A DNA stretch of 64,000 bases, taken from the sequence record PQ511149.1. The stretch is one strand, 5' to 3'. The notes beneath the pieces were generated by a model. It was not told the origin of the DNA and ran no database searches. It worked only from the letters and a program-made list of their open reading frames with translations. The first letter of the stretch is position 1; the number at the start of each line of letters is the position of its first letter. Shown here piece after piece: positions 8,731 to 10,293 of this stretch. This stretch comes from Escherichia phage NHEP11. The translations under genes were made by a program, and so were the position numbers.

Positions 8731-9301
8731 AAAAGTTTCGGATTTGTTCCCAATTCAGAGAACGAAGATTATTACGAGAGTACTGAATTACTTCAATACC
8801 GGCTTGTTTTAGAATGTCTGCCCAATTTTCAGGAGATCTGTCATATAATTCTGCGTATACAACCTTTTTAATACCTGACTGCGTAATAGCTTTAGTGCAA
8901 TCAGGACATGGAGAAAGCGTCGTATATAATGTAGCACCTTCAATAGAATTACCTTTACGAGCTGCAAACAAAATTGCATTCAATTCTGCATGGATTTCAT
9001 TATTAGCAGACCATGCACTATGAGCGGCCCGATGTTCTTTAGCCAAAACAAAATTATCCACCCGTCCAAATGCTGTAGTGCCTTCTTTATGTCCAGCAAT
9101 GATGACCGGGCTTGGTTTATTCTTCAACCAACCATTTTCGGATGCATGTTCACAACAGTTAACGCCACCTGCGGGTGAGCCATTATATCCAGTAGAAATA
9201 ATGCGCCCATCTTTTTCAATGACGGCACCAACTTTCCATGAACAACATTTTGATTCTTGAGAAATCAGATATGCAATCTGAAGGTATGTGCTAGCTTTCA
9301 T
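8720..9301 (-). CDS. cd: dCMP deaminase
   Basis: 193 aa; zinc-binding deaminase motifs HAELNAI and PCPDC; T4 Cd length. Confidence 0.9.
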   Translation of the reverse strand: MKASTYLQIAYLISQESKCCSWKVGAVIEKDGRIISTGYNGSPAGGVNCCEHASENGWLKNKPSPVIIAGHKEGTTAFGRVDNFVLAKEHRAAHSAWSANNEIHAELNAILFAARKGNSIEGATLYTTLSPCPDCTKAITQSGIKKVVYAELYDRSPENWADILKQAGIEVIQYSRNNLRSLNWEQIRNFCGE

Positions 9302-10293
9302 TATTGAACCTTATTAATATGAGTTAACAGCTCTTTAGTTTGTTCCCAACTGATGCACGCATCGGTAACGGAAACGCCATAGGACATATTATCAGAAATT
9401 TTTTGATTTCCTTCATGTAGGAATGATTCTATCATAATTCCTTTGACCAAATCATTAGCTGCTAAATTTTTACCAATACCAATTTGATTGCTATAATGCC
9501 CAGCAGCGTTTGCATGGCTACAGTCAACCATTACATAATGATTCAGACCTACTGCCCTTGCTTTGTTAGAAGCTTCTTGAATATCAGAAGAATGATAGTT
9601 CGGGCCGTTGGTCCCGCCACGCAATACGATATGCGTATTCTGATTACCTTCAGCTTCAACAATGCCTACAGTACCATCGACGTCCATACCCATATACCGA
9701 TGAGGCCAGGCGGCACTATACATCGCGTCTGTAGCTACTTTAATAGAACCATTGGTTGCGTTCTTGAAGCCTACGCACATCGGTAGACCTGAAGCAATTT
9801 CACGATGTGTCTGACTTTCAGTCGTACGGGCGCCAATAGCAACCCATGAGAAAATACCAGAAAGATACTTAATCGTGAATGGGTCTAATACTTCAGTTGC
9901 TAATGGAAGTCCCATACGTAGAAGTTTACGACACAATGTTCGTGCAACTATAAGACCGTGGTTCATATCAAAACTTCCGTCAAGATATGGATCATTTACA
10001 AGACCTTTCCAACCTACGGTAGTTCGAGGCTTTTCAAAATAAACGCGCATCACTAACAGAATATTAGGAAGACGAGTTTGAAGTTCAGCCAGACGTTTGC
10101 CGTATTCAACAGCAGCAATAGGGTCATGAATTGAACAAGGACCTACAACAATAAGTTTGCGTGGGTCTTCACCATTCATAATCGAATTAACTTGTTCGCG
10201 ATGAGAAGCCACTTGTGATGCGTAAGCTTCCGACAAAGGAATAATCTCAGCTAGTTCTTTTGGAGAAATAAGTTTTCCGACGACAGGTAACAT
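9301..10293 (-). CDS. 3-deoxy-D-arabino-heptulosonate-7-phosphate (DAHP) synthase, class I AroG/AroF-like
   Basis: 330 aa; long identical stretches to E. coli AroG/AroF (VVGPCSIHD, VMRVYFEKPRTTVGWKGL, GARTTESQTHRE, VGFKN, ILRGG, DCSHAN, ESxLHEGNQ, VTDACISWE). Confidence 0.85.
   Translation of the reverse strand: MLPVVGKLISPKELAEIIPLSEAYASQVASHREQVNSIMNGEDPRKLIVVGPCSIHDPIAAVEYGKRLAELQTRLPNILLVMRVYFEKPRTTVGWKGLVNDPYLDGSFDMNHGLIVARTLCRKLLRMGLPLATEVLDPFTIKYLSGIFSWVAIGARTTESQTHREIASGLPMCVGFKNATNGSIKVATDAMYSAAWPHRYMGMDVDGTVGIVEAEGNQNTHIVLRGGTNGPNYHSSDIQEASNKARAVGLNHYVMVDCSHANAAGHYSNQIGIGKNLAANDLVKGIMIESFLHEGNQKISDNMSYGVSVTDACISWEQTKELLTHINKVQ

Follow-up and report, generated by a model that had tools for sequence, protein, structure and literature searches.

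A DAHP synthase of T4-like phages with an intact active site and a rewritten inhibitor pocket

Why would a lytic coliphage carry its own copy of an enzyme that its host already has as AroG, AroF and AroH, and is the phage copy subject to the same feedback control? The question arises in Escherichia phage NHEP11 (PQ511149.1), a Mosigvirus that is 99% identical to phage NHEP10. In the 64,000 nucleotides of this phage that were analyzed, which we call the window, an open reading frame (ORF) of 330 amino acids between cd and pseT had been annotated, from the sequence alone, as an apparently intact DAHP synthase (DAHPS).

The gene itself is already known. Among GenBank phage records, 212 have a DAHP synthase gene (139 with genes 97-99% identical to the window protein), and the family has a name, PHROG 5045 (phospho-2-dehydro-3-deoxyheptonate aldolase; "auxiliary metabolic gene"). 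The window copy matches PHROG 5045 over residues 1-330 with E=1.4e-181, and it is an ordinary family member that shows no difference in kind. A phage DAHP synthase has been called an auxiliary metabolic gene in Kanagawavirus KLB31 (PMC11845039) and has been mentioned as one in passing elsewhere (PMC8022965). Our search of the full-text literature for work on what phage DAHP synthases do turned up no functional study, and passing mentions were all that it gave. What we add here is that these phage enzymes form one clade, with a shortened N-terminus and six systematic substitutions in the inhibitor pocket.

An intact enzyme in the cd transcription unit

The ORF begins with an ATG, and there are no further in-frame starts between it and the preceding stop. 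It matches Pfam PF00793 with E=4e-75 (252.6 bits, for a cut-off of 25.5), the DAHPS equivalog TIGR00034 with 428.4 bits (cut-off 173.2), and NF009395 with 456 bits (cut-off 343). Its best match among solved structures is E. coli AroF (6agm, E=6.6e-105). The PF00793, TIGR00034 and AroF scores exclude a chance resemblance. An AlphaFold2 model (pLDDT 90.2, pTM 0.91) superimposes on 4HSO, 5CKS, 1KFL and 1QR7 with TM 0.93-0.96 and rmsd 1.5-1.8 Å, and every one of the top 50 structural matches listed by Foldseek is a DAH7PS. The model is a (beta/alpha)8 barrel with an internal beta-hairpin (strands 198-203 and 209-214) and an N-terminal extension that is mostly kept, 8-11 residues shorter. Profiles, structure and active site thus agree with the initial annotation, the best homologues being all DAHP synthases, and the ORF is an intact, unambiguous type I-alpha DAHP synthase.

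The active site can be read residue by residue. The metal ligands C53, H260, E289 and D311 align with those of AroG (Table 1), and none of the four varies in any of the phage homologues checked, including a set of nine. [quoted passage not shown] The long blocks of identity that were first noticed by eye are real: in the HMMER alignment with AroF (6agm), lvmrvyfekprttvgwkgl, aigarttesqthre, mvdcsh, hegnq and svtdaciswe agree residue for residue. The four metal-ligand positions are conserved as had been claimed, and on alignment no catalytic residue is substituted. We therefore predict a catalytically competent enzyme, one that would condense phosphoenolpyruvate with erythrose-4-phosphate in a metal-dependent reaction.

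[quoted passage not shown] It differs in being 8-11 residues shorter at the N-terminus, in the replacement of six pocket residues, in two short deletions inside the chain, close to the C-terminus, and in that its gene sits in a lytic phage operon.

Table 1. Features of the DAHP synthase gene and its surroundings, in window coordinates
Feature	Coordinates	Strand	Basis
cd, dCMP deaminase, downstream gene, putatively translationally coupled to the DAHPS gene	8720..9301	-	Pfam dCMP_cyt_deam_1 E=1.6e-26; so annotated in NHEP10
13-bp direct repeat, downstream copy ATAATGAAAGCTA, at cd start	9292..9304	-	sequence
TAATG: DAHPS stop TAA (9303..9301) shares its last A with cd ATG (9301..9299)	9299..9303	-	sequence
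DAHP synthase CDS, 330 aa, type I-alpha (3-deoxy-7-phosphoheptulonate synthase, EC 2.5.1.54), phage clade	9301..10293	-	ORF, profiles and model
D311 codon, metal ligand (AroG D326)	9361..9363	-	alignment
E289 codon, metal ligand (AroG E302)	9427..9429	-	alignment
H260 codon, metal ligand (AroG H268)	9514..9516	-	alignment
A214 codon (AroG T223), clade-specific substitution	9652..9654	-	alignment
Y200 codon (AroG F209), clade-specific substitution	9694..9696	-	alignment
P171 codon (AroG S180)	9781..9783	-	alignment
D137-G146 codons (DPFTIKYLSG), remodelled inhibitor-pocket wall; I141=AroG P150, K142=Q151, G146=D155	9856..9885	-	alignment
K88-P89-R90-T91 codons, KPRT motif of the PEP/erythrose-4-phosphate site (AroG K97-T100)	10021..10032	-	alignment
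C53 codon, metal ligand (AroG C61)	10135..10137	-	alignment
Shortened N-terminus MLPVVGKLI...; equivalents of AroG 2-9 missing, including D6 and D7	10267..10293	-	alignment
Shine-Dalgarno AAGGA, 5 nt upstream of ATG (10293..10291)	10299..10303	-	sequence
41-aa ORF between cd.2 and the DAHPS gene	10302..10427	-	PHROG 15876; weaker match to cd.2 family phrog_1504, positions 44-76
13-bp direct repeat, upstream copy ATAATGAGAGCTA	10405..10417	-	flanks 1113-bp block missing from RB69
cd.2 homologue (DUF7320)	10414..10650	-	Pfam E=1.5e-35; 96% identical to RB69 cd.2, 65% to T4 cd.2
Sigma-70-like (early-type) promoter match TTTACA-17-TACTAT, extended TG, between cd.3 and cd.2	10679..10707	-	consensus match only
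pseT, polynucleotide kinase/phosphatase, upstream landmark	11390..12289	-	Pfam HAD_PNKP E=6.5e-58 and AAA_33
MotA-box-type (T4 middle) promoter-like site inside pseT, upstream of cd.x, DAHPS and cd	11673..11697	-	consensus match only

The flanking genes are those first named, a dCMP deaminase and a polynucleotide kinase, in a neighborhood with homologues of cd, gp31, rIII, pseT and alc. In T4, as had been said, the interval from cd to pseT holds just the small ORFs cd.1 to cd.5, and the DAHPS gene of the window occupies the place of T4 cd.1. The overlap of its stop with the start of cd as TAATG can be read directly on the minus strand (GTTCAATAATGAAAGC). The gene is part of the cd transcription unit, and the synteny across five T4-like genera agrees with the proposed integration into a phage operon. 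A 13-bp direct repeat brackets the 1113-bp block that RB69 lacks (Table 1); RB69 has a single copy of it, at its cd.2/cd junction. The 41-aa ORF upstream is 51% identical over 39 aa to residues 45-81 of the Entb_45 cd.2 (E=1.6e-6); what it resembles in the cd.2 homologue found in Kanagawavirus and Klebsiella phages is the C-terminal half.

With this arrangement the gene would be expressed together with the early or middle nucleotide-metabolism genes of the phage, and would be coupled in translation to cd. The promoter assignments are only suggestive. The sigma-70-like match lies at a place equivalent to that of an annotated T4 early promoter, between cd.2 and cd.3; such sites are not in excess in the region (16 vs. 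15.7 expected after shuffling). The MotA-box-type pattern has 11 matches in the window for 1.8 expected, and between the match inside pseT and the DAHPS gene we found nothing that resembles a terminator on the minus strand.

The inhibitor pocket and the phage clade

Where do the phage enzymes depart from the cellular ones? We scanned for positions that are at least 90% conserved both in the phage clade and in cellular homologues, and in which the residues differ. Against 97 cellular homologues this unbiased scan returned exactly six positions, AroG P150I, Q151K, D155G, S180P, F209Y and T223A, and all six either belong to the pocket that binds the inhibitors Phe and Tyr or are next to it! Among the cellular homologues Q151 is present in 97 of 97, and S180 in 96 of 97. 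The equivalent of AroG D146 is unchanged in the phage enzyme. The pocket is a regulatory feature, distinct from catalysis. The comparison of the allosteric site guided by structure, proposed at the outset, proved to be the informative part of the analysis: the pocket is rewritten, and the metal sites are intact. Measured by P150, Q151, D155, S180, F209 and the N-terminal lid, the phage ORF does not have the aromatic amino-acid inhibitor pocket typical of the family.

The N-terminus departs as well. There are 48-52 residues before the catalytic Cys in the phage clade (52-53 in T4-like contigs of IMG/VR), as opposed to 58-95 in the cellular homologues. Work by Shumilin in 2002 and Jossek in 2001 reportedly deals with the role of AroG D6 and D7 and with feedback-resistant alleles in the N-terminus of AroF (N8K, delta-I11). 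The Phe site is supplied by the N-terminal extension and the beta-hairpin (PMC4735112).

Several of the six positions are known feedback-resistance positions. In AroG, Q151 and S180 contact the backbone of the inhibitor, P150L gives full feedback resistance, and S180F and F209A/S also give resistance; in the AroF of C. glutamicum, changes at the equivalents of Q151 and S180 relieve inhibition at 50 uM Tyr (PMC9529685). Not every change in the pocket has this outcome. The C. glutamicum AroF substitutions N156I, T220V and D222A remained Tyr-sensitive (PMC9529685); the effects of pocket substitutions depend on context. The alleles that have been engineered or selected (AroG P150L, D146N, S180F, F209A/S; C. 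glutamicum AroF E154N, P155L, Q159A, S188F) are single substitutions, which often lose activity or stability (PMC9529685), whereas the phage clade has six fixed substitutions and an N-terminal deletion, in at least five genera.

The 25 phage-type sequences form one clade, separated from 98 others (the 97 cellular homologues and P0103, a 5'-truncated cellular fragment) by a bipartition with a neighbor-joining (NJ) bootstrap of 100/100. When the clade was defined by N-terminal length alone, the bipartition test failed because it took in that truncated fragment. In IMG/VR, the six pocket residues read IKGPYA in 10 of 10 T4-like contigs, and as a control, the canonical PQDSFT is kept in about 60 other viral-MAG DAHPS with 38-52% identity. 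Two other sequences, Aeromonas phage HJ05 and the 262-kb viral contig L029 (PNHPYS), keep the active site and have altered pocket residues, possibly by convergence. The aroF copies of 'Acinetobacter phage MD-2021a' we rejected as phage examples; they have a canonical cellular pocket, and the contig on which they lie, with its cobS and ribazole-phosphatase genes, is probably bacterial DNA. Unverified and unannotated 'Bacteriophage sp.' contigs from feces have DAHPS that are about 35% identical.

Between genera, dN/dS is 0.15-0.23 with dS above 1.2, which shows long-term purifying selection; within Mosigvirus there are few substitutions and no clear synonymous bias (e.g., 4 synonymous vs. 9 non-synonymous), the counts being too small. 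A recent capture from the host can be rejected: identity to cellular homologues peaks at 54%, homologues annotated as Planctomycetota or Pseudomonadales are at least as close as enterobacterial AroF (51-52% identity), and the GC3 of the gene is 0.29, like that of the phage genome, in comparison with 0.50-0.57 in E. coli aroFGH.

A survey of the interval between cd and pseT, which the initial annotation had suggested, finds the position of the gene conserved in five genera. Mosigvirus, Kanagawavirus, Winklervirus, Bragavirus and Klebsiella phage P545 all have it in the stretch from cd.2 to cd, which in some of them also contains cd.1 or a different small ORF. The gene is missing from RB69 and about ten other Mosigvirus records, and therefore it is dispensable. 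We have, then, a homologue of a cellular enzyme among the genes of lytic phages, in a named PHROG family, at a position kept in five genera. The proposal that it is an auxiliary metabolic gene boosting shikimate-pathway flux gains from this family and operon context, and the function is plausible; the proposal is not new, given the 212 records, PHROG 5045 and its appearance in print under that name.

Readings of the rewritten pocket

What does the phage enzyme do? We consider it fairly probable that it is a catalytically normal, feedback-insensitive DAHP synthase that drives carbon into chorismate synthesis during infection. The pocket would have been dismantled, as the N-terminal residues that close it from the partner subunit are deleted and six conserved residues are replaced, and thus the enzyme is predicted to ignore Phe, Tyr and Trp, unlike AroG, AroF and AroH of the host. 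This loss of inhibition is a prediction from sequence, by which the phage DAHP synthase is probably unregulated in the infected cell. The shikimate/chorismate pathway could then be fed continuously, even in surroundings rich in amino acids with the host enzymes shut down, and the chorismate product that benefits the phage might be aromatic amino acids, folate via p-aminobenzoate, or quinones.

There is a precedent for an unregulated DAH7PS that serves a dedicated pathway. PhzC, a type IIB DAH7PS of Pseudomonas, is likewise an extra DAHPS without allosteric elements, which supplies chorismate outside of the normal feedback (PMC6435475). It differs in belonging to the type II class, which is less than 10% identical to type I (PMC6435475), in having lost regulation by the omission of two helices and not by substitution in a pocket, and in being bacterial and tied to a biosynthetic gene cluster for phenazine synthesis.

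Could the pocket have been retuned instead? The enzyme would then be a regulated DAHPS that binds another effector, such as chorismate, prephenate or an infection-specific metabolite, or that has gained a new protein contact. The decay of an unused site should leave variable residues, and yet no part of the protein is more conserved across phage genera than the substituted residues and the whole segment of AroG 136-180 (mean column entropies of 0.0-0.18 within the clade). Moreover, the Lys in place of Gln151 and the Tyr in place of Phe209 bring new polar groups, and the model retains the regulatory beta-hairpin and most of the N-terminal extension. However, this segment largely lines the tight-dimer interface, adjoins the GARTTES loop of the active site, and is conserved in cellular enzymes too (0.16-0.68), so its conservation need not mean that it binds a ligand. 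The deletion of the N-terminal lid takes away part of any pocket, and the sequence names no candidate ligand. We regard a retuned pocket as unlikely.

That the gene raises the dosage of an ordinary Tyr-sensitive isoenzyme of the AroF type, still under feedback inhibition, seems to us improbable. AroF of E. coli is the best solved-structure match, the phage enzyme has Pro at AroG 147 and Gly at 211 as AroF does, and several GenBank records are labelled 'Tyr-sensitive' or 'aroF'. But the substitutions take in Q151 and S180, which hold the inhibitor backbone, together with P150, D155 and F209, the N-terminus is shortened, and the clade is not nested in enterobacterial AroF. The ORF also misses the NCBIfam cut-offs of the isoenzymes (364.6 vs. 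568 for AroG, NF006723, and 386.2 vs. 463 for AroH, NF009396), and therefore the 'Tyr-sensitive' or 'AroG' labels of GenBank are unjustified.

We give very little credence to a non-catalytic or moonlighting role, in which the protein mixes into host AroG, AroF or AroH oligomers and changes how they are regulated, or acts as a sink for PEP or E4P and not as a source of chorismate. Type I-alpha enzymes are tight dimers with regulatory elements in the interface (PMC4735112), and the interface region is highly conserved in the phage protein; on the other hand, the catalytic residues are fully conserved despite the divergence between genera noted above, at a dN/dS which argues that catalysis itself is selected.

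Least credible of all is an altered substrate. T-even-type phages modify their DNA with sugars, and PF00793 and its chemistry are common to DAHPS and KDO8P synthases, hence the suggestion in the initial annotation that the enzyme might use arabinose-5-phosphate or another aldose phosphate to supply an unusual sugar with which DNA or virions would be modified; that suggestion finds no support, as TIGR00034 is passed, the only four NCBIfam models at E<=0.001 are all DAHP synthases and none is KdsA, the top structural matches listed are all DAH7PS, the KPRT motif (which KdsA is not known to have) and every PEP/E4P-binding residue are invariant, and none of the five genera examined has nucleotidyltransferase, glycosyltransferase or sugar-processing genes adjoining the DAHPS gene.

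What the phage enzyme may mean

As such, the gene is routine: more than 200 phage genomes have it annotated, and its PHROG family has a name. The wider claim, towards which we lean only slightly, is that T4-like enterobacterial phages have a naturally evolved feedback-insensitive DAHPS, with a pocket rebuilt by the six fixed substitutions and the N-terminal deletion, selected across at least five genera, that overrides the control by the host of aromatic and chorismate (possibly folate) synthesis, and that may even respond to a new effector.

If this is true, gut coliphages would gain control of the committed step of aromatic and chorismate synthesis, the one that feedback regulates. Nature would also supply a stable, fully active, feedback-resistant DAHPS, which metabolic engineers now approximate with single mutations, often at a loss of activity or stability. 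And if the prediction holds, the presence/absence polymorphism between RB69 and most Mosigvirus isolates would be a ready genetic system for the fitness value of the gene.

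Identity of the enzyme and its regulatory site

[quoted passage not shown] Its match to Pfam DAHP_synth_1 has E=4e-75, and it scores 428 bits against the NCBIfam equivalog TIGR00034 aroFGH (cut-off 173). The closest solved structure is E. coli AroF (6AGM, E=6.6e-105), and then come the Neisseria, Francisella and E. coli AroG enzymes. An AlphaFold2 model (pLDDT 90.2, pTM 0.91) overlays solved type I-alpha DAH7PS enzymes at TM 0.93-0.96 and an rmsd of ~1.5 A. The initial annotation had called the gene a DAHP synthase from blocks identical to the E. coli enzymes; comparison with AroG, AroF and AroH agrees, and the HMMER alignment bears out the blocks for AroF.

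The family's regulatory pocket, the site for feedback inhibition by Phe, Tyr or Trp, is not retained when residues are compared. When the top 120 homologues from the database were placed in one NJ tree with E. coli AroF/G/H, a single bipartition with 100/100 bootstrap support held the 25 phage-type sequences together. These 25 proteins have 48-52 residues ahead of the catalytic Cys, versus 58-95 in cellular proteins, and in the alignment nothing corresponds to AroG residues 2-9. We scanned, blind to function, for positions at least 90% conserved both in the phage clade and in 97 cellular sequences, with differing residues. The scan yields exactly six: AroG P150I, Q151K, D155G, S180P, F209Y and T223A (PQDSFT to IKGPYA). 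Q151 and S180 contact the inhibitor backbone (PMC9529685, summarizing 1KFL, 6AGM and the mutant literature), a salt bridge by D155 stabilizes the pocket, AroG P150L is completely feedback resistant, and S180F, F209A/S and V221A are feedback-resistant alleles (PMC9529685). In published mutants of C. glutamicum AroF, changes at the Q151/S180 equivalents lift inhibition at 50 uM Tyr. [quoted passage not shown] So, judged from the alignment, all systematic differences between phage and cellular proteins map to the allosteric apparatus, and the active site is unchanged. Six pocket substitutions and a shortened N-terminus are thus what came of the structure-guided comparison of allosteric sites that the initial annotation had suggested.

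With moderate confidence, we read these residues as those of an enzyme that would be catalytically active yet unresponsive to aromatic amino acids. Chief among the alternatives is a pocket that has been retuned and is not dead. The replacement residues, together with the whole AroG 136-180 segment, are almost invariant across phage genera, and the regulatory hairpin is retained in the AlphaFold2 model; even so, we think retuning unlikely. That the protein is an ordinary Tyr-sensitive AroF is harder still to credit: it scores below both the AroG and the AroH isoenzyme-specific cut-offs, and the isoenzyme and sensitivity labels found in GenBank are supported neither by the NCBIfam equivalog cut-offs nor by the pocket residues.

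The active site bears on two further alternatives. In an alignment with AroG, AroF and AroH of E. coli NC_000913.3, the metal ligands C53, H260, E289 and D311 do not vary among the window protein and nine phage homologues, upholding the four positions initially proposed. The same holds for all the PEP/erythrose-4-phosphate residues checked, which include R92, the KPRT motif, GAR, K186 and R234 (AroG numbering). DAHP synthase activity is therefore very probable for the phage protein, and a non-catalytic role is very unlikely. An enzyme of altered substrate is the least credible reading; the suggested KDO8P-like chemistry for an unusual sugar finds no support in these invariant residues, and no KDO8P synthase model matches the protein in the NCBIfam profile search.

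Other viral DAHP synthases

Could the signature be a by-product of divergence or of viral origin? IKGPYA and the short N-terminus occur in 10/10 T4-like IMG/VR contigs. About 60 other viral-MAG DAHP synthases, mostly from giant-virus MAGs, carry the canonical PQDSFT and, at 38-52% identity, have diverged at least as far as the phage clade. Since they retain PQDSFT, neither explanation accounts for IKGPYA. The GVMAG contigs (L033-L095) hold dozens of MAGs with type I-alpha enzymes at 38-48% identity with PQDSFT, their viral origin being putative.

Two other phage enzymes are altered in the pocket. Aeromonas phage HJ05 (79 kb, unrelated) has intact active-site residues and changed pocket residues (A, H, P, P, V: P150A, Q151H, D155P, S180P, F209V; also V221S). 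The DAHPS of a large viral contig (L029, table) keeps its active site, and the Pro and Tyr of its pocket are those of the T4-like clade. Pro replaces S180 in both, and the altered pockets may be a convergent loss of regulation. On L029 the gene is adjoined by genes for thymidylate kinase, type IB topoisomerase and a NUDIX protein, a second case of a phage DAHPS beside pyrimidine-nucleotide genes. We set aside 'Acinetobacter phage MD-2021a' (CAKLQH020000056.1): its aroF lies beside cobS, histidine-phosphatase-family and alpha-ribazole-phosphate phosphatase genes and has the canonical cellular signature, so the contig is probably a bacterial sequence deposited under a phage name.

Genomic position, expression and history

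Features of the DAHPS locus and of the two compared loci
Feature	Position	Strand	Details
DAHPS ORF	9301..10293	-	330 aa, ATG start
Shine-Dalgarno AAGGA	5 nt 5' of DAHPS ATG	-	sequence
cd, dCMP deaminase	8720..9301	-	Pfam E=1.6e-26; directly downstream of DAHPS
41-aa ORF	10302..10427	-	PHROG 15876; between cd.2 and DAHPS gene
13-bp direct repeat ATAATGA(A/G)AGCTA	10405..10417 and 9292..9304	-	flanks of 1113-bp block; RB69 comparison
pseT, polynucleotide kinase	11390..12289	-	299-aa ORF, GTG start, kinase and phosphatase domains
MotA-box-type site	11673..11697	-	inside pseT, upstream of DAHPS; pattern match
Further MotA-box-type sites (examples)	8395..8419, 20607..20630, 24312..24336, 27472..27497	-	pattern match
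HJ05 DAHPS-like gene	3899..5062 of locus L013 (OQ594355.1)		387 aa, annotated hypothetical; 38% identity
L029 DAHPS	3956..5005 (IMGVR_UViG_3300028829_003504)		262-kb viral contig; pocket PNHPYS; also L030

Translation gives the ORF exactly as initially annotated, and the window sequence has no other in-frame start between its ATG and the preceding stop. The DAHPS TAA and the cd ATG have one base in common in the minus-strand sequence ...GTTCAATAATGAAAGC..., the TAATG overlap claimed at the outset. Pfam likewise places the gene between cd and pseT, where T4 does have only the small ORFs cd.1 to cd.5. The pseT of NHEP10 (4891..5667 of the compared locus) is annotated as 258 aa and those of RB69 and T4 as ~300 aa, likely an inconsistent choice of start codon in NHEP10.

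A sigma-70-like site lies upstream on the same strand between cd.3 and cd.2, and its T4 equivalent is an annotated early promoter. As no terminator-like site is seen on that strand between the upstream promoter-like sites, including the one in pseT, and the gene, expression together with early/middle genes is likely. The middle-promoter pattern (MotA box TGCTTYA, 11-13 nt, then TANNNT) occurs 11 times in the 64-kb window versus 1.8 expected from shuffles; one such site is directly upstream of the gene 31 homologue.

Over the surrounding 5 kb, identity is 99.1% with Escherichia phage NHEP10 and 97-98% with many Mosigvirus genomes. By tblastn the gene is present in 212 of 50,697 phage records. 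Escherichia and Shigella Mosigvirus account for 139 of them, at identities of at least 95%; Kanagawavirus, Klebsiella phages, Winklervirus and Erwinia phages make up 47, at 60-80%; and the other 26, Proteus Bragavirus among them, fall below 60%. The survey of cd-pseT intervals proposed in the initial annotation finds it between these genes in all five genomes, one per genus or group (Mosigvirus NHEP10, Klebsiella P545, Winklervirus X20, Bragavirus PM2, Kanagawavirus Entb_45). A cd.2 homologue lies just ahead of it in all five, and a cd.1 homologue immediately follows in X20 and PM2.

RB69, the type Mosigvirus, is without the gene, and its cd.2 adjoins cd via the same TAATG overlap. Compared with the window, RB69 precisely lacks a 1113-bp block made up of the DAHPS gene and the 41-aa ORF, and has one copy of the flanking 13-bp repeat (about 6243..6255 of the compared RB69 locus). 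This junction occurs in about eleven Mosigvirus records versus the 139 with the gene. The pattern is consistent with recombination at microhomology having deleted or inserted the block, with TAATG coupling preserved. The 41-aa ORF resembles the C-terminal half of Entb_45 cd.2 (51% over 39 aa, E=1.6e-6), and that of P545 cd.2 too. It looks like a remnant brought along with the block, and its likeness to Kanagawavirus-type cd.2 suggests movement of a cassette between T4-like genera.

Recent capture from the host we reject. No cellular homologue exceeds 54% identity; those annotated Planctomycetota or Pseudomonadales are at least as close as enterobacterial AroF (51-52%); GC3 is 0.29, as in adjacent phage genes (E. 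coli aroF/G/H, 0.50-0.57); and inter-genus dN/dS of 0.15-0.23, with dS saturated, indicates long-term purifying selection.

What a feedback-insensitive enzyme would mean

The gene itself is not new: it has been annotated before, and nothing sets the window copy apart. Records call it phospho-2-dehydro-3-deoxyheptonate aldolase, AroG, aroF or DAHP synthetase; PHROG 5045 (E=1e-181) is categorized as 'moron, auxiliary metabolic gene and host takeover'; and passing mentions note a DAHP synthetase domain in phiC120 (PMC8022965) and an amino-acid AMG in Kanagawavirus KLB31 (PMC11845039). GenBank names for one 97-99% identical protein are as varied as 'hypothetical protein', 'putative aldolase', 'AroG' and 'aroF, Tyr-sensitive'. 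We found no functional characterization of a phage DAHP synthase in the full-text literature searched, and the clade-wide, pocket-specific remodelling is apparently unreported.

The main control on carbon entry to the pathway is feedback inhibition of host AroG, AroF and AroH (PMC9529685). A catalytically normal phage enzyme would no longer sense Phe, Tyr or Trp, and would sustain chorismate synthesis in the infected cell regardless of how much amino acid is available. The candidate products of benefit to the phage are aromatic amino acids, which its burst of protein synthesis would draw on; p-aminobenzoate, a folate precursor; and quinones. The thymidylate and hydroxymethyl-dCMP enzymes of T-even phages need folate. 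In concept, the phage enzyme is like engineered feedback-resistant AroG/AroF alleles, and like the PhzC-type DAH7PS, which is unregulated and dedicated to phenazine synthesis (PMC6435475).

As annotation, the gene is routine. The pocket remodelling makes a sharp prediction that is cheap to test, and there would be a modest upside if enzymology confirms a natural feedback-insensitive enzyme serving host takeover.
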